Origin: a virus
DNA: 64,000 nt
Direction: 5' to 3' (one strand)
IMG/VR virus record: IMGVR_UViG_3300019487_000019
Coordinates: 35,924 to 99,923 of that record
Shown here: one piece after another, positions 3,863-19,338 of the stretch
Layout: each line of letters opens with the position of its first letter
How positions within the stretch are numbered: position 1 is the stretch's first letter
Notes under the pieces: generated by a model
The model's database searches: none
What the model saw: the letters and a program-made list of their open reading frames with translations, nothing else
Told to the model about the DNA's origin: nothing
Position numbers and translations under genes: made by a program

Positions 3863-4327
3863 TTAGACCAGCAGAAATTCCTTTTTAAAGTAGGTGACTG
3901 TTGCTTGAACCTGTGAAAGAGGGTTATCCTCAAAATCCCAGAGCTCGTGGGCGGTCAGAGTATCAATAAGCGACTGATAGCACCCGCGGGCTTCGGAAAG
4001 GCGCCGGAAGAAGGGATCGCCCAACAATAGGTTGGGTGTGTCTAGTGTCACGTAAAAATCTTCACCAAAATACTTCTCAAGCAGCTTTGCGTAGACCAAA
4101 GCCACTGCAAACGACTTTTGCGGTTGGTGAATCCACTCATTCCAGCTAACTGTGAAATATGAGATGATTTCAGCTTCAAAGTCAGCGTCATCCAACGCTC
4201 GGCCCACGTTGTCGACCGTAACACTTTGCCCTTCCAGAGCAGCCAGTTTCTCATCTGTGAAAAACAGATCCCCAGGATCAGGATTCTGACTATAGTAATA
4301 CTGTTGTCTTATTTGCCATTCTTTCAT
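3863..4327 (-). CDS. Hypothetical protein, last gene of the radical SAM cluster
   Basis: ORF track 3863-4360. Likely start MKEWQ at 4327, overlapping the end of the upstream radical SAM gene. No recognised motif. Confidence 0.7.
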   Translation of the reverse strand: MKEWQIRQQYYYSQNPDPGDLFFTDEKLAALEGQSVTVDNVGRALDDADFEAEIISYFTVSWNEWIHQPQKSFAVALVYAKLLEKYFGEDFYVTLDTPNLLLGDPFFRRLSEARGCYQSLIDTLTAHELWDFEDNPLSQVQATVTYFKKEFLLV

Positions 4328-5231
4328 CTTTGTACCAGTCCAATAAATGTCGAAAGCCATTGCACGAGTGTTCCAACGTTTTCACTTCACGCAAATGTTC
4401 GCTTAAACAGTGTCCAAGATATGGACACGTTGCGCAAAAACCATTCATGAAGACACGCTTACGTTCCTTCTGTGTCCACGCATAGTAATCAAGCAAAGTA
4501 TCTAGTTGTTCAAAATATTCATTGTCGTTGGCATCGAATTCCAACACAGCAAACTTCCCATGAGGCGTGATATACACATGATCATCACTGAAAGAGTTCG
4601 CCTTTCCAGCAAGGCTATTTTCAATCAATTGTTGATTGATGAACTTAAAGCGCTTTTCGATCGGGCTGACGAGCCACTTCTTGACAAATTCCTCATAATT
4701 CCGGAAGGAAACACCATGAGCGTTATGTTGATTCGTTGAATACGGCTTGATTTCAACCGTTTTGACATTTGCAACTGCATTGAGAACGCGAATCATTTCA
4801 TCAACATCTTTCTCAATTAAGCAACGTCCTGCCAACATTAGCACATGAAGATCACCACCGTATTTCATCATGTTGTCAAACACCTGTTCGTGTTGTTGTC
4901 GACAGTCAAAGTCGTAGCTAACGCTAAGAATTGCACGTCGCCTCAAAAACGTTGGATGAATTCGAGAAAGATTTGTGATGATACTGACTTGGCCTGGGTA
5001 GTATCGCTCTATGACATCGAATAGTTCTTCCAGATAGCGTTCTGGTAGAATCGCGACTTCCCCACCATACAGATCGATGTATTCGATCGGTTCAAATACA
5101 CTAATCTCAGCCAGCATCGCATCAAGACGTTCAAGCATCAACAAACGCCTATTCGACAATTGGTCGACACCAAGGTAGCAAAACTCGCAACGAAAGTTGC
5201 AGAAGTATGATGGATTGATCGAAATCTTCAT
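4290..5231 (-). CDS. Radical SAM protein with SPASM/twitch-like C-terminus (rSAM-8)
   Basis: CNFRCEFC (CxxxCxxC), YGGE motif, C-terminal CATCPYLGHC...C. Start MKISINP at 5231 by ATGA overlap; ORF track extends to 5294. Confidence 0.9.
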   Translation of the reverse strand: MKISINPSYFCNFRCEFCYLGVDQLSNRRLLMLERLDAMLAEISVFEPIEYIDLYGGEVAILPERYLEELFDVIERYYPGQVSIITNLSRIHPTFLRRRAILSVSYDFDCRQQHEQVFDNMMKYGGDLHVLMLAGRCLIEKDVDEMIRVLNAVANVKTVEIKPYSTNQHNAHGVSFRNYEEFVKKWLVSPIEKRFKFINQQLIENSLAGKANSFSDDHVYITPHGKFAVLEFDANDNEYFEQLDTLLDYYAWTQKERKRVFMNGFCATCPYLGHCLSEHLREVKTLEHSCNGFRHLLDWYKDERMANKTTVLL

Positions 5232-5683
5232 AGTCGTATATTCGTAGCAATCGACAAACGCATTCCTGTATACGGAGTTACACGATGATCCCACGATCCG
5301 GGAAACAACAGCAAGCTTCCTTGCTCTGGATGGAATGATGTCATCTCTCCATCGGGATGGTACACGATAATATCTCCTTCGCCGACAGGGTTATCATTTA
5401 TGACGTAGTAATTTGCAACAATATCAGCGTGCTTTGTATGATTGTGTTTTAATAAATGGGTATTTGAATTGATCGTTGTTACACACCAACCATCAAACTT
5501 ACAGGGAGTTCGTCCCGTCATTGTTTCGACTGATTCAATAATGAACATTCGCAGCCCCCTAAGCTCCGGCCACTGCTCACTCCAAATATTTTGCGGATCA
5601 TCATAGTTGTACATCATCGGATAGTTCAAGATGCCTTTGACAATATCATTGAATACCGCATCAGCTTGATAGATTTTAATCAT
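5228..5683 (-). CDS. 2OG-Fe(II) oxygenase (TIGR02466-like small phage type)
   Basis: HNH...ANYYV, GSLLLFPGSWDHRVTP and RLSIATN: the HxH...H facial triad plus terminal RxS. ATGA overlaps on both sides. Confidence 0.8.
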   Translation of the reverse strand: MIKIYQADAVFNDIVKGILNYPMMYNYDDPQNIWSEQWPELRGLRMFIIESVETMTGRTPCKFDGWCVTTINSNTHLLKHNHTKHADIVANYYVINDNPVGEGDIIVYHPDGEMTSFHPEQGSLLLFPGSWDHRVTPYTGMRLSIATNIRL

Positions 5684-6420
5684 CGTAGACGAAGGTGTTG
5701 CAATAATGGATTGCATTCACGATACATTTGATACACCTGACACATCCATGTTGTGTTTACGGCTTGGCGAAACGAAAGCTCTCCATACACACAACCAAAA
5801 TGGCGATCCACGTCACGATAAATTAGTTCAGCAATTCGATTGTGCTCAAGCATCGTCCAAATCTCTGTCATATCATCTTGGATGTTCCAGATTGTGAAGA
5901 ATCGCTCCCACGTCTTAATGATTTCTCGAATGTCGTAGTTCTCCAGCACATATTCGTAGTTGTCTTCTGTAAACATCGAGTCAAACATCCACGAAAGTCT
6001 GGGATCGGTCTTTGCGTATGACAACTGCGCGAGATAATCCGAGCGATCTACTTTCAGATCAGGAAATAAAGTTTCGAGATCTGGCAATGCACGAATAATG
6101 TGTTGCTTTAATGATAGCATCTCTTCGATGAACAATCGATGCGAAGTGTTTTTGACCACTGCCAGTGTCGCTGTTGCGTATCGAGATTCGGGATTAGCCA
6201 AGAAATCCCCTAACAGATGATCAAGTCGTAGAACTGGTATGTATCGTCCCGGCTGAATAACATCATATGCGGAAGTAAAGTTTGCATATGGTGCAGGCAT
6301 ATACTGATTTGTTTTGCCCGTCACATAATCGTGAAACAGAGTTGCTTTGTAAAGGTCATACATGACCTTGCAGTGTGGTTCTGCAAATAGTTGCTTGTGT
6401 GTAGCGATAAACTCGTTCAC
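5680..6420 (-). CDS. Hypothetical protein, paralogue of 14307-15377
   Basis: GTG start in a GTGA overlap. C-terminal RDVDRHFGCVYG matches RDVARGLGCVYG of the 14307-15377 product. Confidence 0.75.
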   Translation of the reverse strand: MNEFIATHKQLFAEPHCKVMYDLYKATLFHDYVTGKTNQYMPAPYANFTSAYDVIQPGRYIPVLRLDHLLGDFLANPESRYATATLAVVKNTSHRLFIEEMLSLKQHIIRALPDLETLFPDLKVDRSDYLAQLSYAKTDPRLSWMFDSMFTEDNYEYVLENYDIREIIKTWERFFTIWNIQDDMTEIWTMLEHNRIAELIYRDVDRHFGCVYGELSFRQAVNTTWMCQVYQMYRECNPLLQHLRLR

Positions 6421-7472
6421 GCTGCCTCCTTGACACCACCAAAATTGATCTCGAGAATTTCTGTTGCAATCGACTTCATAATCTTGCAGTGAGGCTCCAC
6501 AAGATTATGTTCTTTCAGGTCCTTGACAGTCTTACGGCAGCCGTTGCAAATCTTAAACATCGGGCACGTCAAGCATTCTTCTTTCATGCTTATTAAGGAA
6601 GGATCACTTTGCAGTGGGGTAAAGAATTCTTTCCCGTAAATTTCACGGAAGAATGTAATTGGATGCGTTCGATCATCCGCAATTGCACCACACGAATAGT
6701 AATCACCGCTCGGGTTTAACGCTCGAATGTTTTCATCACACTGACGGTGTTGGGGGCACATTGTGTGAAGCCCTTTCAATCGCTGAACCATTTGTTTTGT
6801 ATTGAATTCCCACGGCGTCAATCCTTGCCGATACACTTCAATATATGTTCGATAGATTTTTGACAACAAATAAGGCTTACTTTGAACACCTGATGCGTTT
6901 GCATAATTGAGTTTGCATTCAACGTTCATTCGCTTTGCCAAACGAACGTTATCCAATGCTGTGTCCTCATTTTCATCACTAATCACTGAAATGAAATCTG
7001 GCCGATAACCAATTCGTTCAAGGAACAAATTACTGACCTGCCAGAAGATGTCTTCTGTGAACACTTGCTTCTCTGTAATCCGGCGCGTATCACCGTAATT
7101 GAAAGATGTTGTAATGCCAACACGTGGATGTTTGAATAACTCTTCCCACATCTGTGGCTTTTTGAAGAACGCCCATAAATTTGTCGTCAGACTTACCGTC
7201 GCTTTGTACTTTCGTTGGTCAAGGAATTCTATGATTTGCCAATAATAGTCGGGCTTTACCATTAGCGGATCCCCACCATTGACAATAATTGTCGAAGTGT
7301 TAGGAAAGCGATCAAGAAAGTCGTAGATATATTGATGATCGAGTACGGCTGCTTTGTCATCCGTAATATTGGTCGATGAACAGAACGTGCACTTGAAGTT
7401 GCAAGCCTCTGTTGGCTTGATAATTAACTCCATTGCACGTGGGTCTGTGCTGTCAATCAATTTATGCAACAT
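6417..7472 (-). CDS. Radical SAM/SPASM protein (rSAM-7)
   Basis: IKPTEACNFKCTFC, NGGDP, CPQHRQC...YYSC, CLTCPMFKICNGC...HC. Start at 7472 or 7433 is uncertain. Confidence 0.92.
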   Translation of the reverse strand: MLHKLIDSTDPRAMELIIKPTEACNFKCTFCSSTNITDDKAAVLDHQYIYDFLDRFPNTSTIIVNGGDPLMVKPDYYWQIIEFLDQRKYKATVSLTTNLWAFFKKPQMWEELFKHPRVGITTSFNYGDTRRITEKQVFTEDIFWQVSNLFLERIGYRPDFISVISDENEDTALDNVRLAKRMNVECKLNYANASGVQSKPYLLSKIYRTYIEVYRQGLTPWEFNTKQMVQRLKGLHTMCPQHRQCDENIRALNPSGDYYSCGAIADDRTHPITFFREIYGKEFFTPLQSDPSLISMKEECLTCPMFKICNGCRKTVKDLKEHNLVEPHCKIMKSIATEILEINFGGVKEAA

Positions 7473-8040
7473 CGAAAACTCGTCTTTCGAAAATTGTTGG
7501 AGCGATGGGCTTCCCATAGGCTTCCATTAGAGCGCCGCGACGTGAGGCTATTTTGAGAGCCGCCTGACAATCAAACCGACAAGGAAAGAAGCTGATTGTG
7601 CGATTGTGAAGATCAGGTGTCATATACTTGCTGAATTGTTCGCCAGGAATCGACTCCGATAGAGCCGAACTTAGGTAATTATACTTGTGCATTACATGCT
7701 TCACCGATATGGCAAAAGCTTTGATGCAACATATGGGATAGTCATAATAATATCCAAGATTGCCGTGATCATCTTGATATTCGGCTTGAATTAGCTCCTG
7801 CACGACCATGACGTCGGCCGCAACATATATCTCGTAGTCGTCGTTGTGAAAATATGTGGGGTCGCTTCCACCATACACATCAATATCCTGTCGTTCTGTA
7901 GGAACGATACCAAACTGAAGTCTCCTCGCGTGAATCAAGTCGATAGCATTCGCCAAATGTTCTTTACGAACTGATATGCGGCAAGCAGCGCGGCGCTTTT
8001 CACTGACATCAATCAGATCGAGAAAATCACACGACGACAT
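7462..8040 (-). CDS. DUF483-like Cys-rich protein
   Basis: YDYPICC and FFPCRFDC resemble the GYPxCC / PCxxxC signature of DUF483-type proteins. Start uncertain; ORF track extends to 8172. Confidence 0.55.
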   Translation of the reverse strand: MSSCDFLDLIDVSEKRRAACRISVRKEHLANAIDLIHARRLQFGIVPTERQDIDVYGGSDPTYFHNDDYEIYVAADVMVVQELIQAEYQDDHGNLGYYYDYPICCIKAFAISVKHVMHKYNYLSSALSESIPGEQFSKYMTPDLHNRTISFFPCRFDCQAALKIASRRGALMEAYGKPIAPTIFERRVFDVA

Positions 8041-9088
8041 TGTACTGGGTAGCATTTTTCGGATCCAATATAGTGTTAAAGAATTCTTTGTATAGGCAAG
8101 TTGCCATCTCTTCGCGGTTTGTCCAGTCAGCCTGAACGAAGCAACGGAACGAACATCGATCAAAGTGCTCACAACTTAAGCAACCATATTTGTCGAGGTG
8201 GGCTTGAATGATATTAGCATTGCTCTTATAGTCAATTTCCGTGTTGAAGTCGTCTTGATCATACTTCAGGTAGCGACATTTTACTTCACGACCATCCGGT
8301 AGTAGTGTTAGTTTATTCAACGAGTAGCATGTCATCGTGTTGAATCGATGATGTACCCAATCACTTACAGGAGCGACATTTGGATAATGTTCCGCTAGGA
8401 ACAGAAACACTTCAAGGTGCTCGCGATCACTCGGTATCATGTGTTGTGAAAGTCGTTCTGGCACATAATAGTCAAAGTACAAGGGGTATCGAGTGTAGAG
8501 ATACTCAAATTCCTCGTCTTTTTCGGTCATGATTCGCTTAATTGCTTGCTTTGTTAGCACAAAGCCAATCGTGTAGATTTGACTGCCAAACCGTTCCAAG
8601 TTCTGATGGAACAAGTCCTTTTTGGCAACGTTTAGAGGGCGTCCTGCGAAGTCATAACTGGTCGAAATGTTCGATTTGATGCCAAGCAGGTGCAATGTAT
8701 CGAGCAGTTTTTGGACCCTCGTCCACTTCGTGAACACGAGGTTCGTGACCCAATTGAAAACACACGTTTTTCCAGCCTGATTTGCGTGGGCATCAACATC
8801 GAGGGCAAAGTTGAGGTAATCGATGAATAGATCGTCTGAAACCGCATCATTAAACAGTTCACCACCCATCATGTTGATGATGAATTTGTCCATCCGGCTA
8901 TTGCGAATAAACTCGTTCACACGATCGACCTTATTCATCACCGTATTCATTCCTACTTTCGAGTTGTGATCTTGCCCACAAAAGGCACACGCAAGATTAC
9001 AAAACTCAAAGAAGTGCAGTTCAATTTCTGCTGCTTCATTGACTTTGTTTTTCAGGACCTGATTGAGTAGGTCTTCATGTGTATTCAT
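8027..9088 (-). CDS. Radical SAM protein with SPASM/twitch-like C-terminus (rSAM-6)
   Basis: CNLACAFC, MGGELF, C-terminal C...C...CLSCEHFDRCSFRC...C. Confidence 0.9.
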   Translation of the reverse strand: MNTHEDLLNQVLKNKVNEAAEIELHFFEFCNLACAFCGQDHNSKVGMNTVMNKVDRVNEFIRNSRMDKFIINMMGGELFNDAVSDDLFIDYLNFALDVDAHANQAGKTCVFNWVTNLVFTKWTRVQKLLDTLHLLGIKSNISTSYDFAGRPLNVAKKDLFHQNLERFGSQIYTIGFVLTKQAIKRIMTEKDEEFEYLYTRYPLYFDYYVPERLSQHMIPSDREHLEVFLFLAEHYPNVAPVSDWVHHRFNTMTCYSLNKLTLLPDGREVKCRYLKYDQDDFNTEIDYKSNANIIQAHLDKYGCLSCEHFDRCSFRCFVQADWTNREEMATCLYKEFFNTILDPKNATQYNVVV

Positions 9089-9489
9089 TCGTGCATATCC
9101 GTTCGAAATTCAGGCTCGATTATAAATTTAGGGAGCGCTTGACACCATCTGGGTTTATTGCGTGGGTGATACACCAACGCCTGGATATTTACGTCAAATC
9201 CCTCTTCCTTTTCATATGAACTCAATAGTATTCGGCGAAGCAATCCAAAGGATCCAACATGATACTCTTCGATTAGGAAGAGGATGTTGTTCTCGATATA
9301 TCGAAACTCAAGGGCAAGAGGGTAGTACAAGGCATCCTGATGCCGGAAGAATACGATGTACTCAGACGGCTGTTTGGACTGTCGAAAGTTCTCATTACTT
9401 ACAACAACATCATGGCGATCAACTCCAATGAAGGTTGGTGTTGTGAAAATTGGTTCGGTTCGAATCAGGCTAGGAAATTTTGTTGACAT
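9085..9489 (-). CDS. Hypothetical protein in the radical SAM cluster (134 aa)
   Basis: ORF fills the gap between neighbours with overlaps on both sides. No recognised motif. Confidence 0.65.
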   Translation of the reverse strand: MSTKFPSLIRTEPIFTTPTFIGVDRHDVVVSNENFRQSKQPSEYIVFFRHQDALYYPLALEFRYIENNILFLIEEYHVGSFGLLRRILLSSYEKEEGFDVNIQALVYHPRNKPRWCQALPKFIIEPEFRTDMHE

Positions 9490-10228
9490 TACTCACTCCC
9501 ATCGGCTTTGCGAATCGAATAGGCTGATTTCGAATCTGCCCCGCAAACACTAATGCGGTCAATTCCGTCCAGTCTTCGAATGTACTGGCCTTGCTCAAAA
9601 ATCCATAGCCGGCGCGGTCGAATCGAAGGTGTGCTAGAATCTCACTGCGCTGAAATAAAGCACTGATGTTCTCTGGTTTGAAAATCTTTTCGATATATCG
9701 TTGTGCTGTTGCCCACGGCACGTGTAGGGTAAGTGTCGTATCGTCGAGAACAGCATCATAACCGACAAGAACCGTATCGTCCTCGAAGCGAATGTGTGAT
9801 CCCATCATCATATAGGTCGTGTTGCACGACAGCTCGGTAATCGGCGTCTGCAAATCAACTGTGGCGAGTGCAAAGTGTCGAGGAAGTGTAAATCGATCGT
9901 AAGCATTATTCGCAAGTCGAAGCGCGAGAGTCTTATCTTCTCTCGATTGATTACGGCCCGATAATTGTTCCATTGTGTGTTTGTGAATATCAAATTGTCT
10001 CATCAACCATTGTTCGCGCGTCCATTGTTTCTGATGATACTCTTGTTGAACCCAAGCCTGAACCAATTGCTGATACGTCAAATTATCGTGCGGATATGGA
10101 AGTGTTCCTAACGAATAACGATACAGACCAGGAAAATAATCAGCACTCGACAAAATCGTCTGAAACAACTCTTCGTCGTTTATCGACGCAAGTTCACGTA
10201 AATCAATTTTTGATATTGTTGGCGACAT
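9470..10228 (-). CDS. Hypothetical protein in the radical SAM cluster (252 aa)
   Basis: Long ORF overlapping both neighbours. No recognised motif. Confidence 0.7.
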   Translation of the reverse strand: MSPTISKIDLRELASINDEELFQTILSSADYFPGLYRYSLGTLPYPHDNLTYQQLVQAWVQQEYHQKQWTREQWLMRQFDIHKHTMEQLSGRNQSREDKTLALRLANNAYDRFTLPRHFALATVDLQTPITELSCNTTYMMMGSHIRFEDDTVLVGYDAVLDDTTLTLHVPWATAQRYIEKIFKPENISALFQRSEILAHLRFDRAGYGFLSKASTFEDWTELTALVFAGQIRNQPIRFAKPMGVSNVNKIS

Positions 10229-11279
10229 TCATTGCTCTCTTTGCAAGAATGCAGTCTTTTATTTGATAACGGTCCATCATGTGGAGGATTCCCCGATCAG
10301 CACACGACCCCAGATATTGACACGTTCCACATTCTTTCTCGTTGGATTTCCTGTATTCATTTAACAGGAGATTATCCTCGAATTTCTCGATTTCTTCAAT
10401 TGACCATTGAGCAAGAGGGATTCGATAATGCGGGTCAAACGAGACATATCGCTCGTAAAACATTGGTGAATAGTACAGTTCCCCATTACGAAAATTGTAT
10501 TGTTTTTCAACCAAGCTATCGGTCAAGCGTCCCACACTGAACCGAACGAATTGCACTGTTTCAGGGTCTACATTGTCGTTAAACAGAACCTTAATTTGTT
10601 GTGCTGCTCGTTCAAATTCTTCGCGCGAAAGGTTCGTTTTTCGACCAATACTGAAATTGAAGTCAATGTCTGTGTTGTACATTTGCTCAATCAGGTTATG
10701 AAGGTAGACATAGTCATGGAGCAGTTCGCTAATTCGCGTCTGGGAATAATCAAACACGTTGAACAAGGCATGACTTGTGGGCGGCTGACGAAACCTCTTG
10801 AGAATTTGATGACGGGTTGCCTTCACGTGTTCAAGATAACTAGTGTTGTGTATTTGTCGAAGATCAAAAGTGATATTAATCTCGATCGGTTTGTCCGAAT
10901 AGTGTTCGTTGAAAACATCAATAACATCGGTGGTGCTTGGAGTTTCTGCTAGAAAGGCACTTGCAAAGCTGATTTTTTCAAAGCGTTTTAAGAGATCAAT
11001 TGTTCGCCAATCAGCAAGAACAGAAGCAGTATTGCTCGAGGAAAACAAGTCTGTTGGTCCAACCGTTGCAATGAATGGCTGATAATTTTTCCGGATTGCT
11101 GTTTCTAGCAGAACGGTTAAGTTCTGATAATCTTGTTGAAGAAAGCCTGTTTGCGCTGTCTTATCGACGAAACACCCCTCACACTTCCACTGACAGCCAT
11201 ACAGAACATCAAAATTTAGGTCGAGGTACAGTGTATGTGCTTCGGCGTAGCTGACACCAATTTTGTCTCTATCGCTCAT
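10203..11279 (-). CDS. Divergent radical SAM protein, PTD subtype (rSAM-5)
   Basis: CQWKCEGC. GPTD in place of GGE. C-terminal ECGTCQYLGSC...C. Tandem paralogue of 11269-12387. Confidence 0.8.
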   Translation of the reverse strand: MSDRDKIGVSYAEAHTLYLDLNFDVLYGCQWKCEGCFVDKTAQTGFLQQDYQNLTVLLETAIRKNYQPFIATVGPTDLFSSSNTASVLADWRTIDLLKRFEKISFASAFLAETPSTTDVIDVFNEHYSDKPIEINITFDLRQIHNTSYLEHVKATRHQILKRFRQPPTSHALFNVFDYSQTRISELLHDYVYLHNLIEQMYNTDIDFNFSIGRKTNLSREEFERAAQQIKVLFNDNVDPETVQFVRFSVGRLTDSLVEKQYNFRNGELYYSPMFYERYVSFDPHYRIPLAQWSIEEIEKFEDNLLLNEYRKSNEKECGTCQYLGSCADRGILHMMDRYQIKDCILAKRAMNVANNIKN

Positions 11280-12387
11280 TACTTTCTACCTTGGTCAACT
11301 TAAAGTTGATTGCATCGAGAGCATCTTTGGCGATGACACAGCGCCTGATGCCAAACGCATCCATTAATGTCAGGACGCCTCTATCGATACACGAACCTAG
11401 GTAATGGCAGGAACCACATTCTTCTTTGTTGCCGATGTTCGCATACTGAGTGACTTGTGCAGTATGCTCCCACTGCTCGAACTCTCGAGCTGTCCATTCT
11501 TTGATTGGGATCTCGAATTCAGAACGGAAACTGACAAATCGTTCATACAGCAATGGGCTAGCATAGAACCTTCCGTTGCGATAGTTGTACTGCTTCTCAA
11601 TAAGACTATCGGTTAACTTGCCAAACGAAAAACGTAGAAATTTGACTTTCTCGCCAGAGATTGCATCATCAAACAACTCCGAGATCTGCAACACAGTCTT
11701 CTCAAATTCTTCTCCTGGCAGATCATCCTTTCGTCCAAGGCTAAAGTTGTAGTCGATCGTTGTTTCGAACAAGTGATTAATCTTGTGGTGTAAGAAGTCG
11801 TAATTCTGTAGAGTCTCGGCAATCTTTGTCGCACTATAATCAAACACATTGAAGATGCCAAAGGTGCGGATTTCCGAAAAGGCCGTCAGGCGGGCTTGGA
11901 GACTATCTTTATTGCGTGCTAGCAATTCAAGGTATTTCTGATTGAGAATTTGGGCGGGCTCAATAATGATATTAATCTCCAACTCCATATCTTTATAGAG
12001 TGTGTTTAAAACCTTCACGATGTCATCCACACGAGGCGCATCCACATCGAGGTATGTTGTTTGGAGGCTTAGTCGTCGAAAGCGATTCAAGATTGCAACA
12101 GTGGCAGGATCACGAAGGAAAGCAGCAGTGTTATTTGCAGCAAGGAAGTCGGTTGGAGCAATGAAGGCGATAAACGGCTTGTAGCTACTACGCTCAAAAT
12201 CATCAAGAAGCTTCACAAACTGCGTTGTGTAGCCCCCAATGCCATCTTGGATCTCTTTATTAACATGGCACCCACGACAAGACCACTGGCAGCCGTTTAG
12301 AACCTCAAAATTGATATTGAGGTAAAACGTATTTGCATCTTTAAGGTGTCGTGAAGCGAGATACTGTTGGTCAATGTAGCTGTCCAT
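11269..12387 (-). CDS. Divergent radical SAM protein, PTD subtype (rSAM-4)
   Basis: CQWSCRGC. APTD in place of GGE. ECGSCHYLGSC...C. Shares LTDSLxEKQYNxRNG..Y.SP..YER.VSF with 10203-11279. Confidence 0.8.
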   Translation of the reverse strand: MDSYIDQQYLASRHLKDANTFYLNINFEVLNGCQWSCRGCHVNKEIQDGIGGYTTQFVKLLDDFERSSYKPFIAFIAPTDFLAANNTAAFLRDPATVAILNRFRRLSLQTTYLDVDAPRVDDIVKVLNTLYKDMELEINIIIEPAQILNQKYLELLARNKDSLQARLTAFSEIRTFGIFNVFDYSATKIAETLQNYDFLHHKINHLFETTIDYNFSLGRKDDLPGEEFEKTVLQISELFDDAISGEKVKFLRFSFGKLTDSLIEKQYNYRNGRFYASPLLYERFVSFRSEFEIPIKEWTAREFEQWEHTAQVTQYANIGNKEECGSCHYLGSCIDRGVLTLMDAFGIRRCVIAKDALDAINFKLTKVESNER

Positions 12388-13205
12388 TATGTTCCCTGAA
12401 GTGCCTCAATCATTTTTTCAACAGTTGTCTGCTTAGTACACAAAGCGACCAAGAAACTGAAGAATGAATTCTCAGGAACATCGAAGTAGTGGATCAGACG
12501 CTTTCCTTTGAACATATACTCAGTAAACTGTTGCTTGAAGTATTTACCTGGTGTCGGGGCTGGAATAGAAAAATATAGTTCCAGGAACAGCGGAATGCGG
12601 AAAAGATTGACAACATTACTTCCAATATACAGCGGATCGTCAATCTTTTCATATTTGTCAAAGAATCCCGGAAACGCTGTTTCGAACGCTGGGATAGCTA
12701 CCTGTGATCCATCATCGGTTGTTTCAACAAGCTGCACCGAATACATTGCAAACAACATCATAGAGTCAAGGAACGTATACCAGCGCTCCATCAGAGCTGG
12801 ATTCTTCGCAGCAAAGGCTTTCATTTCGTCAAGCGATAACGGAACAAATGGTACAATGTCTCGTTCAATGTTCACGCCCTTGTTGTGTAGGAGAACAGCA
12901 GCTGTTAGAAGCGTGAGTCCTTTTGTTTCGTTGATGTTTCGCGACTCCATAAAGTCCTTGAGAAGCTCCATCCGTTCTTCAACGGACGTGTCAGCGAAGT
13001 CAACTTCTGCGGGAAGATCAAGGTTCGAAATATAGGTGAGGAACACCTTTCCCTTGACAGAACTCTTGGCGTAATCTATTACGAACAATAGATTCTTATT
13101 GATAAAGAATTCTTTGATTTGGTCCATCGTCAGTGGTGCAACCACTCGGCGAATTTCCCTCTCAACCGGTTCGATTTCTTCAACCTGTTCAATTTCTTCT
13201 GCCAT
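12387..13205 (-). CDS. Hypothetical protein in the radical SAM cluster (272 aa)
   Basis: Long ORF with GGAG RBS and a TAATG overlap with the downstream gene. Confidence 0.75.
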   Translation of the reverse strand: MAEEIEQVEEIEPVEREIRRVVAPLTMDQIKEFFINKNLLFVIDYAKSSVKGKVFLTYISNLDLPAEVDFADTSVEERMELLKDFMESRNINETKGLTLLTAAVLLHNKGVNIERDIVPFVPLSLDEMKAFAAKNPALMERWYTFLDSMMLFAMYSVQLVETTDDGSQVAIPAFETAFPGFFDKYEKIDDPLYIGSNVVNLFRIPLFLELYFSIPAPTPGKYFKQQFTEYMFKGKRLIHYFDVPENSFFSFLVALCTKQTTVEKMIEALQGT

Positions 13206-13214
13206 TATCGTCTC

Positions 13215-14303
13215 CTAACCTTTGTGCAACTCAATCAAGTTGTCCTGAGCAATTCGATACTTACGAGCAAACTGTGGTAAGTTCTCTTGTTGAAAGCGAA
13301 TGACGGCTTTACTCAATGGACATTCGTCTTCATCAGGCCAAAACAAATCTACTTCACAGTTGCCGCCACACACTTCAAAAAATTCACACTTGTAGCACAC
13401 ATCTGCCATCTTCTCATCTTTACGACGGACGATTTCATCCAGAGCTTTTGTTGCGAATGCATCCCAGTTTGAATACATTTCATCAACATCACTGATCGGC
13501 TCATAATAGGTCTTGTCAGGACACAATCCAACAGACCCCCACGGGTTCATCGTGAATGTCCGCTGAGCACAACAATTACACTTACAGTCGAGCGTATGCC
13601 CCTCTTGAAGACTTTTTGTGAACATATCAACCTGAGGCATTGACCACGATACATCATTTTCCACATAATACTCAACGAGTTTTTGCAGCCATGCTGCCCA
13701 AGGTACGTTTCGGACTTTAAAATTACGGGTCTTTTGGTCGAAGGTGGTTAACAGTTCGAAGTCAATCGACTTCACCCCCGCAAACCTTTTTGCTAACTCT
13801 ATGGGGTCCAACTCAAGTAGATGTTTTTGGGTTGTAATGGCAATCGCAATATTGACCTTTTCGTCGAGGAGTATCTGGAGATTCTTCCAGAAAAGAGCCT
13901 CTTGATTAGCGGTTGTAAAGCGAATTTTATAGTCCCAACTCACACCAATCTCGTTATCACAGCGCGTACGAAGGAAGTCAAGAAACTCGTCTGTAATGTT
14001 GTACATCAGATTTGTTTGTGGAACAATGATTCGCGTGGTTTCGTCGAAGATTGTGTCGATTTGATCACACACTTCGTGCATGTATGGAATTGGCGCTAGA
14101 AAGGTTTCCCCACCATGCAAATAGAACGTTGCTTTCTTTGGATTGACGTTCTGACGAATCGCCTTAAAGTATTTCTCAGTCGTGCTAAGTTCAGCAACTT
14201 TAATTGGATCGCGATTTCCTGCCGTAAAGCAGTGCGTACAATTTAGATTGCAGCCTTGAACGATTCGAGTGTAGATGACATTGAAGTCAGTGTTGAAGAA
14301 CAT
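13215..14303 (-). CDS. Radical SAM/SPASM protein (rSAM-3)
   Basis: CNLNCTHC, HGGETFL, CKCNCC...GLCPD, CYKCEFFEVCGGNC...CP. Paralogue of 16889-18019. Confidence 0.93.
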   Translation of the reverse strand: MFFNTDFNVIYTRIVQGCNLNCTHCFTAGNRDPIKVAELSTTEKYFKAIRQNVNPKKATFYLHGGETFLAPIPYMHEVCDQIDTIFDETTRIIVPQTNLMYNITDEFLDFLRTRCDNEIGVSWDYKIRFTTANQEALFWKNLQILLDEKVNIAIAITTQKHLLELDPIELAKRFAGVKSIDFELLTTFDQKTRNFKVRNVPWAAWLQKLVEYYVENDVSWSMPQVDMFTKSLQEGHTLDCKCNCCAQRTFTMNPWGSVGLCPDKTYYEPISDVDEMYSNWDAFATKALDEIVRRKDEKMADVCYKCEFFEVCGGNCEVDLFWPDEDECPLSKAVIRFQQENLPQFARKYRIAQDNLIELHKG

Positions 14304-14306
14304 GGC

Positions 14307-15377
14307 TTATGCCAATTCGTATGTTCCCAAAACACTTGTCGTACCTTCACGCTTCATGCGATAGGCCCAAGTTAGAAACACCTGACACATACGGAGACGA
14401 TAACGGCCAGCACCATACACACAACCTAGGCCACGTGCCACATCGCGTTCGAGTAGTTGTTCGTACTTGTGATCATAGATTAGATCAATCAATTCAGACA
14501 TATCTTCATATGGAGCGCCCCACGCCTCGAGAACTCGTGCATAGAGCTGCTTGAAGATTTTACGATCGTAGGTGGCTTCAACGTATTTTGGATTTTGATA
14601 TGAAACTTTTGAGTCAACCATCCAACGAAGATATTCGTTGGAGCCAAACGAAGTAAACAACAAATGATCGAGGTCAGACAGATTGATTTGTGCATCTGGC
14701 GGAAGCACAGTATTGATGTCGCCAATCCCGTTAATCAGATCAGCTTTCAGAACTTCAAGTTCTTGAACCCAGTTGGCCCAAGTAAACCGTTCCACTTTTT
14801 CTAGGACAACCTGGCGCATGGGACTCTTGACTGGATCACGCAAATAGTCAGCAAGCTGGTACTCAAAACTTACCAGATGCTTTGGCAGTTTTTGTAGGAA
14901 CAATGCAACAGGTGTCTCTTGATAAAGTTTATCAAAGGTTTCGCGCGACATAATTGTCAATTCACGTGCTGCAACACGTCCTTGCTCATTGCTATCTTCA
15001 TCATATAAGAATGACTTGAACCAACGATCTTGTGTAAACATTTTGTGCAATTCGTACACGCTGTCGACCGTTGGATTCTTGAGAATGCTTTTCCAATATT
15101 GTATCTGTAGTGCTTGATACAGGTTGGGCTCTACGTACAAAACGTTTCGTGTATCACCGAGTTTCGTTCCATTGAGATAACTCCAGATTTTTGTCTTGTC
15201 GCCACCAAGAAATTGTTTCGCAAAGTCATCAAATGATGCATGCACTTGAACGAACCGAAGGCCTGGATCAAGAAGATCTATTTTGGACCAACGACTGCTG
15301 ATAGCAAGATTGCTATAGCGAATTGTTGTCAATGCGGCATCAATATCAAGGTAGACATCACCAAATACATGAAACAT
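14307..15377 (-). CDS. Hypothetical protein immediately downstream of the candidate substrate gene
   Basis: Start MFHVFG at 15377 with GGAG RBS; ORF track extends to 15434. C-terminal half is paralogous to 5680-6420. Confidence 0.75.
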   Translation of the reverse strand: MFHVFGDVYLDIDAALTTIRYSNLAISSRWSKIDLLDPGLRFVQVHASFDDFAKQFLGGDKTKIWSYLNGTKLGDTRNVLYVEPNLYQALQIQYWKSILKNPTVDSVYELHKMFTQDRWFKSFLYDEDSNEQGRVAARELTIMSRETFDKLYQETPVALFLQKLPKHLVSFEYQLADYLRDPVKSPMRQVVLEKVERFTWANWVQELEVLKADLINGIGDINTVLPPDAQINLSDLDHLLFTSFGSNEYLRWMVDSKVSYQNPKYVEATYDRKIFKQLYARVLEAWGAPYEDMSELIDLIYDHKYEQLLERDVARGLGCVYGAGRYRLRMCQVFLTWAYRMKREGTTSVLGTYELA

Positions 15378-15382
15378 TTTCT

Positions 15383-15907
15383 TTATCTCCGTCCACGAGC
15401 ACCATGACACGACGAGTGGCATGATGAATGACATGCAAGTAATTGAACAGTCGATGCTTCAGTTGCTGCTCGATTGGTATTCAAAGCTGTAATATACGTT
15501 GAAAGAGCTGTGCCGCTTGCGTCGGTACTGGCAACAGGAGCACCAGGAGGATTAACAAGTGCCTGGTATGCAGAATTCAAAATCGTTTTCCCCGAACCAA
15601 GAAACGTACAGCCGATACAATTAAACCAAAATTGCGTGTCTCGAATGCGAGAAGAAGCCAGAGCAAAGTTATATAAAGCACTCGCCAATCCTGAAGCAAC
15701 AAGATCAGAAGCCGTAATGTCGCCGGCGGTAATATCTTGAGCTGGTGTATTACTCAAATAAGCCGCAGCATAAGCAGGATAGCCCGCATACGTAAAAGGA
15801 TTACCTGACAGATTGTAGACAGTGCCAGCGTTTGCGGCAGCAATAACCGTCGTATTAAATTCGCTGACTACACTTGCTTTCGTTGCATCAGTTCCTGCGG
15901 TCGGCAT
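15383..15907 (-). CDS. Candidate radical-SAM substrate: Ala/Thr/Ser-rich protein with C-terminal CHSSCHSSCHGARGRR tail
   Basis: Strong GAGGAG RBS. 174 aa. C-terminal Cys-x3 / His-x-Ser repeats resemble RiPP core peptides. Embedded among eight radical SAM genes. Confidence 0.75.
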   Translation of the reverse strand: MPTAGTDATKASVVSEFNTTVIAAANAGTVYNLSGNPFTYAGYPAYAAAYLSNTPAQDITAGDITASDLVASGLASALYNFALASSRIRDTQFWFNCIGCTFLGSGKTILNSAYQALVNPPGAPVASTDASGTALSTYITALNTNRAATEASTVQLLACHSSCHSSCHGARGRR

Positions 15908-16889
15908 TCATATTCTCCTCAAGATAGCATGGAAGGCCCATCTCGCGAGCAAGAGCAAAAAACCCTTTCCCGTGGCATGTTGACAGATTCGGACAACTAT
16001 CGCATGCATCAATAATAGGGTGATTATCCGCCTCCATTATCGAATAAGCTGACAAGAAACCGTCAAAAGATGCCTGTTCTAACGCATATTTATGGAGGAA
16101 AACGTATTCATCGAACGGCATAATCGGCGATACGTAAATCTTTCCATCCTTGAACGTAAACGCTGGTTTTCGCAGCATCGTTCTGCTATTGAACCTTGGA
16201 TCACCATCTTTTACGTATAAGTCCGAAAACTCACGCAAAAGCTTATAGCTCTCCAGCATCATTTTTTGCCTCTTTGTCGGGCCAATCAATGAATTGTAGA
16301 GGAAAGTAAAGTTAACCTCAACAATTTTGTCGGCCGAAAGGCGGTCAACGAGTTCATGCAGCCGTACAATCTCTTCAGGTGAAAACTTCACCCCAACGTT
16401 CACGGCAAGATTGATAACGGTTGATGGATATACCTGAACGATCTGCTGGATCTTTTCCCTTAACATTGTTTCGTACGTTGTTTCAAACAGATGATTGAGA
16501 ACAATGTTAACTTGAAGCTCTACTTTAGACCCATTACGTTCGATTAGGTCGAAAACATCTTTGTCCCATTCACCAATCAGCGTTGAAGCAATGCCAACAT
16601 ATCGAAAGCGCCTTGCAAGTTCGGCAAACTCTTCGCTTCGAAACAGATCTTTGTTCGATTCGTTCTCAAAGATATCGGTAGGGAGGAGGTAGCAAGTCTC
16701 GAGACTGTAGCCGTGTTGCTGAAGTTCCTGACTCAATGTAAGAGCTGGTTCATACGTTCCGAAAGTATTTCCGTCTCGTTTGTAGAAACACCCACGACAC
16801 CCCATGTTGCAGAGATTGAGAAGAAACATTCGAAACTCAACAAGTCGATAAGGATCAGTATATTTCCCATACAGGTTTTGTAGTGGCAT
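15888..16889 (-). CDS. Divergent radical SAM protein, PTD subtype (rSAM-2)
   Basis: CNMGCRGC. LPTD in place of GGE. IYVSP. CDSCPNLSTC...C. Confidence 0.8.
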   Translation of the reverse strand: MPLQNLYGKYTDPYRLVEFRMFLLNLCNMGCRGCFYKRDGNTFGTYEPALTLSQELQQHGYSLETCYLLPTDIFENESNKDLFRSEEFAELARRFRYVGIASTLIGEWDKDVFDLIERNGSKVELQVNIVLNHLFETTYETMLREKIQQIVQVYPSTVINLAVNVGVKFSPEEIVRLHELVDRLSADKIVEVNFTFLYNSLIGPTKRQKMMLESYKLLREFSDLYVKDGDPRFNSRTMLRKPAFTFKDGKIYVSPIMPFDEYVFLHKYALEQASFDGFLSAYSIMEADNHPIIDACDSCPNLSTCHGKGFFALAREMGLPCYLEENMNADRRN

Positions 16890-18019
16890 TATTCCTGTCC
16901 CATGAACTCGCCGAGCACCTCACGGTATAGTTGTGTGTTGCGTTCTTGTTTGAAATGTTTCATCAACGATTTCGGTGAGGCGCAAATATCACCTTCCCAA
17001 GCAAGCTGATGACAATCACCATTGCAGACATCAAATACTTCACAAGAGTAGCAGAGAGGATTCCGTGCACTTTCGCATGCAATATTATTCAAACGACCTG
17101 GTGAGGTTAGCAACTCAACAATATTGTCGTCGATCGAACCGAACGTGTTCTCAACGGCAGAATTTGGGCATCCACCAATTTCGCCAGTTGCATTGATAGT
17201 GAAAATCTTTTGCTCACAAGAGCGGCAACGACATCCTGAATGCGTTGTAAAAACAAAGCTTGACAAAATTGAATTGAAGAACAAATTCTCAAAGTGTTTA
17301 TGCATTCCGTGCTGAACTGTTTGCTGCCACATCTTGACAAACCACGCATCAAGTTCTTTATTCGTCGGGAAAATATGTGGATTCAAATTCGCATTTCCGT
17401 TTGGTGTGATCCGTTCGAGGTGCAAGTAGCGAACGCCGAGATCAGCGACAAACTCGAGGAGTTCAATTGGCTCACGTTCAACAACAGACTTACTCAATGA
17501 TACCATTAACGTCACGTCCATCCCCTCTTGTCGAAGGACACGAACATTATCTCGCCACAAGTCTTCTTGTTTCTGATTCGAGAAACGAATCCCTTTGTCC
17601 CACGAAGTAGCAAGACCATTTGTGAATGCTTGTTTCATGAAGTCCAATTTCTCGTTATCGAGTTTGTAGACAAGGTTCGTCGTTGTTGACCACCAAAGAT
17701 TTGGCCAAAGGTCTTTACATTCTGCCCAAACAGTTCGCATATCACTGACAGGTGCAAGGAAGGGTTCTCCGCCGTGGAATGCAACGTGTGCGTTTGTAAG
17801 GATGGGGGCAACTTCTTTCAAGCGGTAGAACCAACTAATCGTTTTCGGAACGTTGAAGTAGATCTTTTTACCATTAATTCCATTTGTAAAGCAATGTGCA
17901 CAATTCAACTGACACGTTTCAGTCGTTTTCAGATAGACCATCAATTCCTTCAGATGGACGTATGGAGCAGGGGCAATTGCCTTTTTGGCTCGATGAAACG
18001 TAATTGTCGACAGGGTCAT
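16889..18019 (-). CDS. Radical SAM/SPASM protein (rSAM-1)
   Basis: YLKTTETCQLNCAHC, FHGGEPFL, CRCRSC...GGCPNS, CYSCEVFDVCNGDC...C. Confidence 0.95.
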   Translation of the reverse strand: MTLSTITFHRAKKAIAPAPYVHLKELMVYLKTTETCQLNCAHCFTNGINGKKIYFNVPKTISWFYRLKEVAPILTNAHVAFHGGEPFLAPVSDMRTVWAECKDLWPNLWWSTTTNLVYKLDNEKLDFMKQAFTNGLATSWDKGIRFSNQKQEDLWRDNVRVLRQEGMDVTLMVSLSKSVVEREPIELLEFVADLGVRYLHLERITPNGNANLNPHIFPTNKELDAWFVKMWQQTVQHGMHKHFENLFFNSILSSFVFTTHSGCRCRSCEQKIFTINATGEIGGCPNSAVENTFGSIDDNIVELLTSPGRLNNIACESARNPLCYSCEVFDVCNGDCHQLAWEGDICASPKSLMKHFKQERNTQLYREVLGEFMGQE

Positions 18020-18040: not shown

Positions 18041-18069
18041 AGTCTACCACCTTTAGCAAGTCCCATCAA
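18041..18069 (-). promoter_or_regulatory. Putative sigma70 promoter for the radical SAM cluster
   Basis: TTGATG - 17 bp - TAGACT with extended -10 TG, about 20 nt upstream of the rSAM-1 start. Confidence 0.5.
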
Positions 18070-18072
18070 CAA

Positions 18073-19338
18073 TTATGCCCACTGTGCTGGGAAGAACTGT
18101 TTCCAATTGACGTCAGAACCACTTGAACCAAAGAAAGTTGGAAAACTTACTGCTGTTGTCATTGCAACCCAAGCATGGCTCGTCGCTGGGTTAACATAAA
18201 TGTCGCCCGGTTTATGAGAGACTGCAGCACCACTAACATAAGCATTTGCGAATCCCGTTGAACCACTTGATGGAGTACCAACCAGAGCGCCAAGACCATT
18301 GACATAAGCAATTGATGCAGCATTGTTTGAAGGAGCAGCAGGATACACTTGAACATCTAGACCCGTAATAGGGTTCGCATCCATTGCAAGACTTCCCGTC
18401 ATATTCGGCGGTGTGTTGAGCGCCGTGCCTGCGAGACGAACATACGTGCTATTCAAAACTGCAGTTGAGGCCAAGCTATCAGTATACGATTTGGTTGCAG
18501 CATCTTGTGCGCCAACTGGGTTTGCCAGGTTGGTGATCCTAAAGCCGCCCATATCAAAGTTATTTGGACCAACCCATCCTTGTGTTCCACTCGACAGAAT
18601 GATACCCACCCAAGATGTGCCGTCCCAAATATTCAGTTGTTCGGAATCTGTTTCCCACCAGAAAGCACCTATTGCTGGATCCGGTGGAGGATTTGTCGAA
18701 AGTGAAACGTACGAGATTGGAAGTGGAGTCCAGTCTTGTTCGAATTCATCGTACATCAACACGTTTCGTTCTGGATAGTCCGTACCGTTGACAGGTGGCG
18801 TTGTGCTCTCCGCATGTGTGCGCTCAACCCATCCTGCTGGAACTTGCTGGAACATACTGTAATAACCATACAGTGTGTTTGCTTTGATTGCTTGACCGAA
18901 AGCGTCGGTTGCTGGTACGAAAGGACCTGCTCCTGTATACCAATATGCACCGATCGAAGCTGCTGGCGCGGTATTTGACGTAGCGGAGCCAGCACCACCG
19001 TTCACAAGAAAGTCAGTTGGAGCTGTTTGCCACACGGCTGGATTGTCTGGATCAAGACGATACCAATAAACAATCGGACCATTCGTATCACGACGATAAA
19101 ACTTTGTTCGAAGCCACAACTGACCACCAACGCCAAACGGTGGTGGCGTTGCACCATTCAGGTTTTCTGCAATGCGCAGCAAGTCTTCATCAACAGCCTC
19201 GCCCCATTCAAGGGCACCCCGACCATACAAACGAAGGTTTGATGCAGATGACGTTCCGCCAGGTCCATTAAATCCACCAGGATTGATAGTGAACCCACCT
19301 CGGAGCGGATCGCTGAAATTGATTGAGTACGAAGACAT
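18073..19338 (-). CDS. Tail fibre-like virion structural protein (421 aa)
   Basis: N-terminal LYGRG..EWGE...AENL...GQLW motif. DMGGFRITNLANP and ATKSYTD fibre-shaft modules. Preceded by TATAAATA. Confidence 0.7.
   Translation of the reverse strand: MSSYSINFSDPLRGGFTINPGGFNGPGGTSSASNLRLYGRGALEWGEAVDEDLLRIAENLNGATPPPFGVGGQLWLRTKFYRRDTNGPIVYWYRLDPDNPAVWQTAPTDFLVNGGAGSATSNTAPAASIGAYWYTGAGPFVPATDAFGQAIKANTLYGYYSMFQQVPAGWVERTHAESTTPPVNGTDYPERNVLMYDEFEQDWTPLPISYVSLSTNPPPDPAIGAFWWETDSEQLNIWDGTSWVGIILSSGTQGWVGPNNFDMGGFRITNLANPVGAQDAATKSYTDSLASTAVLNSTYVRLAGTALNTPPNMTGSLAMDANPITGLDVQVYPAAPSNNAASIAYVNGLGALVGTPSSGSTGFANAYVSGAAVSHKPGDIYVNPATSHAWVAMTTAVSFPTFFGSSGSDVNWKQFFPAQWA

Follow-up and report, generated by a model that had tools for sequence, protein, structure and literature searches.

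A radical-SAM gene cassette and its CHxS-tailed partner protein among the tail-fibre genes of jumbo phages

A compact gene block between two fibre genes

The DNA analysed here, referred to as the window, comprises 64,000 nucleotides of the IMG/VR virus record IMGVR_UViG_3300019487_000019 (positions 35,924 to 99,923), whose source contig measures 183 kb and has an estimated completeness of 58%. Besides genes for a large terminase, a tail tube protein, fibre proteins and a helicase, the window contains a block at positions 3863–18019 that brings together radical S-adenosylmethionine (rSAM) enzymes and a small protein ending in three Cys-His-x-Ser (CHxS) units. More than 100 phages, and also predatory Bdellovibrio-like bacteria, carry this cassette beside fibre genes, and for this reason it probably carries out a chemical maturation, so far undescribed, of a host-contact protein. 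The block consists of 17 co-oriented open reading frames (ORFs) on the minus strand, labelled g01 to g17 in the order of transcription. An earlier note on this DNA had counted 16 genes; its description of a co-oriented, tightly packed array stands, as all 16 junctions are overlaps (ATGA, TAATG, GTGA and longer ones) or gaps of at most 9 nt. The products are five clear rSAM enzymes, three divergent rSAM-like proteins, a 2-oxoglutarate (2OG) oxygenase, a DUF483 protein, the tailed protein (TAIL) and six proteins, rather than the five counted before, for which Pfam, NCBIfam and PHROG scans returned no informative family (g04, g06, g09, g10, g14 and g17).

The block is flanked by genes for two tail-fibre-like proteins, both on the minus strand. 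The upstream neighbour (421 aa, 18073..19338), separated from g01 by 53 nt, matches PHROG tail and tail-fibre families and, weakly, Phage_T7_tail; the downstream neighbour (736 aa, 1597..3807) matches phrog_11660 (tail protein) and other tail-fibre PHROGs. The two flanking proteins are homologous, as had been proposed, with 36% identity (E 1e-13) over the first ~90 residues and another motif in common. A sigma-70 promoter of the block's own, placed at 18041–18069 (TTGATG-17-TAGACT), could not be upheld: the site scores 8/12, which is too low for the threshold of the scan, and the region contains promoter-like sites at chance level (30 found vs 29.6 expected). The T4-type late motif TATAAATA has two matches in 64 kb vs 1.3 expected, which is not significant. 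A megablast search of the whole block against 50,697 phage records, a collection that may lack the genome of the window itself, gave no match, nor did a tblastn search of the same records with the tailed protein, whose homology is too short.

The tailed protein g03 (174 aa, 15383..15907) is the proposed substrate of the cassette. Its gene lies between g02 and g04, two genes from g01, with a GAGGAG Shine-Dalgarno sequence 7 nt ahead of the ATG. The protein ends in CHSSCHSSCHGARGRR (tail codons 15386–15433), bearing out the earlier description of one product with a Cys/His/Ser tail, and its only three cysteines stand at every fourth residue. It matches phrog_35144 over residues 149–174. An AlphaFold2 model computed from the family alignment (predicted local distance difference test, pLDDT, 79.8; predicted template modelling score, pTM, 0.75) shows a confident α/β domain followed by a low-confidence tail. 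Fold searches with this model (Foldseek PDB, AFDB clusters and VIA wide) gave no match in the PDB (best Z-score 4.4) and otherwise returned its own family only. Another contig, of 355,604 bp, encodes the identical protein (P0001); public data therefore probably include the window phage as a near-complete genome of about 355 kb.

Eight products (g01, g02, g05, g07, g08, g11, g13 and g16) carry an N-terminal CxxxCxxC motif and a C-terminal CxxCx5C cluster, exactly as many as had been reported to hold such motifs. Their assignment as eight rSAM enzymes is secure for g01, g05, g11, g13 and g16; g02, g07 and g08 have no Pfam or NCBIfam match and are linked to the enzymes by profile comparison at an hhalign probability of 62%. 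The gathering cut-off of the Pfam Radical_SAM model (PF04055, 29.5 bits) is passed only by g05 (362 aa, 13215..14303; 30.7 bits), g13 (366 aa, 6417..7517; 34.9 bits) and g16 (4290..5231, in an ORF open to 5294; 34.2 bits). Below it fall g01 (376 aa, 16889..18019, with CQLNCAHC at residue 36; 20.2 bits) and g11 (353 aa, 8027..9088; 16.7 bits), which match the phage rSAM family phrog_1802 with E-values of 1e-60 and 2e-37, respectively. By inspection, g01, g05, g11 and g13 possess at least seven C-terminal cysteines, ten in g01, in the SPASM-like pattern CxxCx5Cx2-3C, and g02, g07, g08 and g16 a single C-terminal four-Cys cluster. The SPASM model TIGR04085 describes a seven-Cys domain with two auxiliary 4Fe-4S clusters; g01 (25.5 bits), g13 (25.2 bits) and g05 (22.5 bits) all score just under its cut-off of 27 bits.

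The three divergent proteins cluster together in what we call the GPTD family: g02 (333 aa, 15888..16889; CNMGCRGC), g07 (372 aa, 11269..12387; CQWSCRGC; phrog_31457, E 2e-81) and g08 (358 aa, 10203..11279; phrog_31457, E 2e-65), the last a paralogue of g07 with 43% identity. Their invariant residues are C33, C37, G39, C40, P78 and D80, such that the Cys triad is retained and G-P-T-D stands where rSAM enzymes have GGE. The comparison of this family with the g01 family extends over 140 columns (E 7e-5), and g07 scores 16.6 bits in a scan of its own genome.

The CHxS tail and its linkage to the enzymes

We defined the CHxS-tailed family by a C-terminus of three C-H-x-S units followed by R-x-R-R and a stop codon, with a g01- or g07-type rSAM gene adjoining. 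On this definition g03 belongs to the family (phrog_35144 and relatives) and aligns with 112 members. A degenerate DNA pattern for the tail and stop codon located 108 IMG/VR loci with 132 tailed ORFs of 99–319 aa, and 19 loci in a species-representative genome set; by our own arithmetic the per-site probability is ~2e-15, so chance matches are not expected. At positions that the pattern leaves free or partly free, the three serines are nevertheless kept in 99%, 99% and 90% of cases and the glycine in 88%. A profile search of 1.84 billion representatives yielded 857 family members at E ≤1e-3, counted as representatives at 50% identity, and 625 at 1e-10; the strict tail ends 136 of the 149 best profile matches, the remainder being mostly variants or truncated proteins. 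Tailed proteins typically have no cysteine outside the tail, and the rest of the protein diverges to 17–34% identity while the tail stays fixed. The number of repeats varies from two to five CHxS units (L130, L133, P0123, P0145, L178 and L198 are among the loci and proteins concerned), and a few members have a Gly/Pro/Asp-rich end (…CHGDGPGNGGGV) instead of R-x-R-R.

A freely diverging N-terminal part joined to a fixed tail would also suit a classical ribosomally synthesized and post-translationally modified peptide (RiPP), in which the N-terminal ~155 residues of g03 would act as a leader and the 16-residue tail would be modified, cleaved and released outside the particle as a bioactive or metal-binding peptide, for antagonism, signalling or metal capture. 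Mycofactocin- and PQQ (pyrroloquinoline quinone)-type precursors carry their core at the extreme C-terminus in the same way, and many tailoring enzymes, in related loci including B12-binding rSAM enzymes and oxygenases, are typical of RiPP clusters. Yet the N-terminal part is predicted to be a confidently folded domain, unlike a leader; no protease or transporter is seen either in the window or among the conserved core genes, in keeping with the earlier observation of no obvious protease or exporter in the block; and the gene always lies within fibre modules. A strict RiPP pathway comprises a short leader-core precursor, a RiPP recognition element (RRE) or other leader recognition element, and a leader protease and/or exporter, whereas the precursor candidates here are 99–319 aa long with a folded domain. 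We consider such a pathway improbable, and the virion data presented below add to this.

The linkage between tail and enzymes was examined in both directions. Starting from the tail, 105 of 108 viral loci gave an ORF ending in it, and 95 of these 105 hold rSAM ORFs; each of the ten exceptions is either a short locus or one whose tail falls at the border of the retrieved sequence. Starting from g06 (272 aa, 12387..13205; phrog_20767), an acidic protein that is the constant downstream neighbour of TAIL, a profile (A2) recovered a strict tail ORF in 77 of 80 independent viral loci, in 71 of which the end of the tail ORF and the g06 start lie no more than 50 nt apart. Of the three loci left over, two carry variant tails, bringing the count to 79/80. 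Clusters that lack the tailed gene are thus far from routine, in line with the earlier note's pairing of this gene with the enzymes.

The product of g06 is a candidate chaperone or docking protein. Its AlphaFold2 model reaches a pLDDT of 87.7, and a fold search with it gave no significant match (best Z-score 5.1 over 57 residues). In its alignment no column of Cys, His, Asp or Glu is conserved, and an Atlas search was uninformative. We also considered g06 as a decayed rSAM domain and rejected this at an hhalign probability of 0.1%.

The cassettes come in two architectures. In the recurrent type A, the order is g01-TAIL-g06-x-g11-x-g13-x-g16-x-g17, with g01 directly upstream of the tailed protein. 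In type B, two consecutive TAIL genes precede up to six g07/g08-type paralogues; in examples such as L015, L020, L034, L044, L070, L082, L089 and L113, the tandem tailed proteins measure 124–140 aa and are followed by two ORFs without assignment and then by the GPTD-type arrays, g01 and g06 being missing. The window cassette merges the two types and adds g04, g05, g09, g10, g12 and g14. Most related cassettes carry oxygenase, cupin or JmjC genes: a cupin/JmjC-like protein lies upstream of g01 in 46 loci, and several 2OG oxygenase families are represented. A B12-binding rSAM enzyme is sometimes present (L141:6572-8311, L224:6153-7880 and L110:6574-8277, in predator and phage loci), and the window has none; such enzymes belong to class B and are usually methyltransferases.

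Protein searches found the cassette in four cultured phages, namely RSL2 (Ralstonia), pPa_SNUABM_DT01 (DT01, Pseudomonas), Atu_ph07 (Agrobacterium) and Phosso (Sinorhizobium). It spans unrelated jumbo lineages, comprising the phiKZ-like RSL2 and DT01, the Rak2-like Atu_ph07 and hundreds of uncultured phages. In each of the four, a g01 orthologue (35–58% identity) is directly followed by a 178–306-aa protein ending in CH[ST]SCH[STA]SCHxxRxRR, and these tailed proteins barely align outside the tail. The most conserved cassette enzyme is g13, with 56–59% identity to the four phages and ~60% to copies from Bdellovibrionota; g16 shows 43–55% identity to the four phages, and g11, a core member of type A cassettes, has orthologues in all four and occurs in 45 loci. 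The genes just upstream of the cassette match virion-structural, tail and tail-fibre PHROGs in RSL2, DT01 and metagenomic loci, and in Atu_ph07 and Phosso the cassette comes after a 13-kb structural gene.

Strict co-occurrence fits an obligate cofactor protein equally well as it fits a substrate. The tail could thus bind a metal or Fe-S cluster as an electron donor, scaffold or carrier, while the enzymes act on something else, be it the neighbouring fibre proteins, an envelope lipid or sugar, or a small molecule. Three Cys-His pairs are good metal ligands, and fibre genes are the other constant neighbours of the cassette. Against such a helper role, the fibre neighbours are non-homologous between lineages while the tail is invariant, the invariant Ser and Arg are not needed for metal binding, and type B loci have two tailed genes alongside up to six rSAM paralogues. 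A strong Shine-Dalgarno sequence and presence in the virion would likewise suit a product better than a catalytic helper. We judge the helper role unlikely, whereas it is likely that the tail is the substrate of the cassette enzymes.

The cassette also exists outside phages. The 19 loci from bacterial records are mostly labelled Bdellovibrionota (Bdellovibrio, Bacteriovoracaceae, Halobacteriovoraceae and Pseudobdellovibrionaceae). Contigs of 1.29, 2.45 and 2.84 Mb carry the locus between genes of cellular type, such as those for serine dehydratase and helicase, and the cassette is therefore chromosomal there; the g06 profile matches 11 of 301 sampled Bdellovibrionota genomes. In four of the five predator genomes examined, a protein of ~350 aa with a Peptidase_S74 (endosialidase chaperone) domain is encoded within ~3 kb of the cassette. 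These genomes hold one to four Peptidase_S74 proteins each, and in one of them the cassette-adjacent copy is the sole copy. All four proteins (L138:11765-13006, L140:15655-16692, L224:16597-17643 and L225:14993-16063) combine a hydrophobic, type-IV-pilin-like N-terminus, in one case with a Pfam N_methyl match, and a C-terminal Peptidase_S74 domain; a BLAST comparison of them with all window ORFs found no similarity. A pilin-anchored fibre would in itself be unusual. On the 2.84-Mb contig (L223:2866-9933), a 2355-aa surface-type protein with RCC1 repeats and Big_2 domains is encoded directly downstream of the TAIL-g06 pair. The tailed proteins of Bdellovibrionota have no signal peptide.

Comparison with known maturation systems

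Profile and structure searches with the cassette enzymes, as the earlier note had proposed, identify peptide and protein maturases as the nearest families (DynA, anSME, DarE, PapB, CteB and cyclophane synthases), rather than rSAM enzymes that modify nucleotides or cofactors; the closest solved structures are 8vpo, 4K36–4K39 and 5WGG. All scores are far under the cut-offs of these families. The best NCBIfam matches, all sub-threshold, are DynA and anSME for g01, and DynA, anSME and a cyclophane maturase for g05.

The closest functional precedent, by analogy, is the HXS antiphage system, in which the rSAM enzymes HxsB and HxsC mature full-length HxsA, leaving +8 Da on SHRSS (Nat Commun 2026, PMC13128918). 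The cassette would likewise mature a full-length protein at His-Xaa-Ser, the window tail having three H-x-S followed by R-x-R-R. In the window, however, an invariant Cys precedes every HxS, the motif sits at the extreme C-terminus, and cassettes hold five to eight or more rSAM genes plus oxygenases, compared with two rSAM genes in HXS. The owners differ as well, being phages and predators instead of defending hosts, and the product appears in a virion. Membership of the His-Xaa-Ser system (TIGR03976–03979), put forward earlier, finds no support: g03 has no NCBIfam match, none of the small proteins matches any NCBIfam family, HxsA and HxsD included, and g13 scores 33.6 bits against HxsC, with a cut-off of 267.9.

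The HXS precedent raises another alternative, namely that the matured, basic HxS-type tail acts in the host periplasm, binding DNA or peptidoglycan and escorting the incoming genome, or neutralising HXS-like periplasmic gatekeepers by mirroring the HXS effector. HxsA is itself an rSAM-matured protein, and periplasmic DNA binding is reported for its basic tandem HxS repeats (PMC13128918). Furthermore, the tail ends in R-x-R-R, and jumbo phages and Bdellovibrio-like predators both cross or inhabit the prey periplasm. Still, no sequence kinship to HxsA–D was found and the predator copies are without signal peptide; HXS is almost confined to Pseudomonadota (PMC13128918), while many cassette loci derive from marine or freshwater metagenomes. 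This role strikes us as very improbable.

Anaerobic sulfatase-maturating enzymes (anSME; TIGR03942, PDB 4K36–4K39) are SPASM rSAM enzymes that act on Cys/Ser of a folded full-length protein, and g01, g05 and g13 have them among their best sequence matches, although the scores (44.0, 48.9 and 38.8 bits, respectively) compare with a cut-off of 349. The sulfatase motif reads C/S-x-P/A-x-R, and the third tail Cys likewise has Arg at +4, but the +2 position is Gly, Ser or Thr instead of Pro or Ala, and no sulfatase was found among the window proteins scanned. With so many enzymes and three repeated units, a single formylglycine would seem too little.

In the CXXX-repeat system (TIGR04114/TIGR04115), cysteines at every fourth residue likewise occur beside SPASM rSAM enzymes, and the ranthipeptide and sactipeptide maturases PapB and CteB are among the weak matches of the cassette enzymes. 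Membership of this system, also suggested before, fails: g01 scores 16.4 bits against TIGR04115 (cut-off 350), no other enzyme matches the model, and no other window protein scanned against NCBIfam matches the target family. In addition, g03 has only three cysteines, each followed by an invariant His. The cyclophane (triceptide) synthases FxsB, GrrM/OscB, YhhB, XyeB and AmcB join an aromatic residue to its second neighbour downstream, as in F-x-S for Fxs, and H-x-S in the tail fits this aromatic-x-x motif; g05, g13 and g01 match these families weakly (18–38 bits vs 310–450), but the window has no short precursor bearing many repeats. The QhpD/QhpC system uses an rSAM/SPASM enzyme to introduce several Cys thioethers into a subunit that is kept in a larger assembly. 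Weak matches come from g01 and g05 (20–22 bits vs a cut-off of 453); in that system Asp or Glu residues act as acceptors, and the cassette lacks a quinone cofactor context.

Clusters of the same kind as that in the window occur in published genomes, specifically in Aeromonas phage 332-Vera, RSL2/RSF1/FLC6/S13 and pPa_SNUABM_DT01. In 332-Vera, eight rSAM genes lie in the structural cluster, a feature its authors termed 'highly unusual' (PMC12390700). The FLC6, S13 and DT01 papers list such rSAM genes, and the DT01 paper guesses at DNA repair or metabolism. Neither these papers on phage rSAM clusters nor any other paper found in our literature search mentions the tailed protein, and the cluster papers name no substrate or function; the literature statement is among the least secure made here. 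The Ralstonia phages RP12 and RP31 have a different rSAM cluster behind YomR-like genes, perhaps another virion-linked rSAM module (PMC5468394). It encodes a 537-aa rSAM protein, a 360-aa 'arylsulfatase regulator', a 419-aa MoaA-like protein and MgoB (PMC5468394, supplementary table 2); being differently composed and missing from the tblastn matches, these genes were not used as relatives.

Virion presence of one orthologue, proposed maturation and other genes

The virion proteome of Atu_ph07 is given in Supplementary Table S5 of PMC6102473. Its entries include gp170, annotated as hypothetical and with a mass of 31.89 kDa; 8 unique peptides cover 35.16% of the sequence, and the protein was found in gel slices 1–9, with its maximum in slice 1 (PMC6102473). 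We mapped the gene numbers by counting from gp141 (lysin), in agreement with the masses of gp142, gp143, gp176 and gp177; the computed mass of the Atu_ph07 TAIL orthologue is exactly 31.89 kDa, the same as gp170. The virion list, in the part covered here, includes neither the cassette enzymes gp164, gp165, gp168 and gp171 nor the g06 orthologue gp169 (PMC6102473). Two proteins encoded between the giant structural gene and the cassette, gp176 (66 kDa) and gp177 (21.7 kDa), are both present (MF403008.1, 124633-127105; L009:9602-11425 and 8953-9549). The detection of the tailed protein fits the earlier preference for a modified full-length virion protein, and peptides covering 35% of it in particles count against a classical RiPP.

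In the same gel, slice number falls with mass, with ~30-kDa proteins peaking in slices 7–8 and proteins >85 kDa in slices 1–2 (PMC6102473). Since gp170 peaks in slice 1, it appears to run far above its own size after boiling in sodium dodecyl sulfate, which would fit a covalent or very stable assembly; this reading and the virion assignment itself are among the least secure offered here.

We favour a model in which the cassette matures the CHxS units of a full-length protein that joins the host-contact apparatus of the virion, and we hold this to be moderately probable. The g03 protein would be made in excess from its strong ribosome-binding site, and its unstructured tail, C-H-x-S-C-H-x-S-C-H-x-S-R-x-R-R, would be modified in the cytoplasm by the rSAM battery (four SPASM-like enzymes and four with one auxiliary cluster) together with the Fe/2OG oxygenase, while g06, acidic and not itself an enzyme, would probably keep hold of the substrate or present it. 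Judged by family resemblance, the likeliest chemistry would be intramolecular cross-links in each CHxS unit, as Cys thioethers and/or a His-to-Ser C–C 'cyclophane', plus hydroxylation; formylglycine at the third tail Cys, with its Arg at +4, is a further candidate. The matured full-length protein would then be built into, or attached to, the fibres, where a rigid Cys/His knot with a basic end would act as an attachment module, whether by covalent, metal-mediated or electrostatic means.

Several points weigh against this model. The virion evidence comes from one phage, whose particles were purified by polyethylene glycol (PEG) only (PMC6102473). RecA-like, single-stranded-DNA-binding (SSB) and ribonucleotide reductase (RNR) proteins appear in Table S5 with 1–3 peptides (PMC6102473), so carry-over into the particles is possible, and the giant structural neighbour gp180 is not among the part of the table covered. 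A mass shift or cross-link has been seen in no member of the family. The proteins g02, g07 and g08 are without the GGE motif and may be unable to cleave SAM, and the Pfam, NCBIfam and PHROG scans of the block revealed no RRE/PqqD-like domain, protease or exporter. Neither the N-terminal domain of TAIL nor g06 matches a known fold, and there is thus no structural tie of either to the fibres. A predicted complex of g01, g03, SAM and three 4Fe-4S clusters scored 0.01, which is evidence neither way.

A bolder and doubtful extension of the favoured model holds that the CHxS end is a cross-linked, metal-binding or reactive 'warhead' on phage tail fibres and on the pilin-like fibres of predators, which would attach them to the Gram-negative envelope covalently, through a metal bridge or by mimicking a receptor. 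A dedicated prey-touching chemistry would then be common to jumbo phages and Bdellovibrio-like predators. Maturation by rSAM enzymes is known for secreted peptides, a few enzymes and one defence effector; to our knowledge, no such maturation of a virus particle component has been described, and if the extension is correct, this would be a post-translational virion modification of a kind undescribed for any virus. The investment of 14 kb and eight enzymes is conserved across unrelated jumbo phage lineages and predatory bacteria. A tail that is modified and displayed would imply a new enzyme chemistry on a simple 16-residue motif, a new principle of phage–host and predator–prey contact, and a function for gene blocks that phage genome papers found puzzling. 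The motif is short and portable, and cultured phages carrying the cassette exist.

The predicted 2OG-Fe(II) oxygenase is confirmed as g15 (162 aa, 5228..5716; PF13759, 27.4 bits vs a cut-off of 27; phrog_81). Type A cassettes usually end with g17 (3863..4360; phrog_20737), which encodes an acidic protein of 165 aa. An accessory protein, g04 (14307..15377; phrog_36207), whose start was set at an internal Met following the Atlas record, has homologues adjoining TAIL in Bdellovibrionota loci; an Atlas search with it was uninformative. Its C-terminal part is paralogous to that of g14 (246 aa, 5680..6420; phrog_36207, E 7e-5), which in turn has a BLAST match to the RSL2 orthologue of g04. Two further proteins have no family match in Pfam, PHROG or NCBIfam, namely g10 (134 aa, 9085..9489) and g09 (252 aa, 9470..10228); for g09, no counterpart was seen in the related loci examined and no BLAST match in the four reference phages. 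The DUF483-like protein proposed earlier is g12 (7462..8055), which scores 29.1 bits against PF04467 (cut-off 25); its ORF is open to 8172, the likely start being an internal Met, and its Atlas structural match is to DUF483 clusters (TM-score 0.75). The fold also matches a viral Atlas cluster whose members join DUF483 to methyltransferase domains, and these fusions hint at a role for g12 beside SAM-dependent enzymes.

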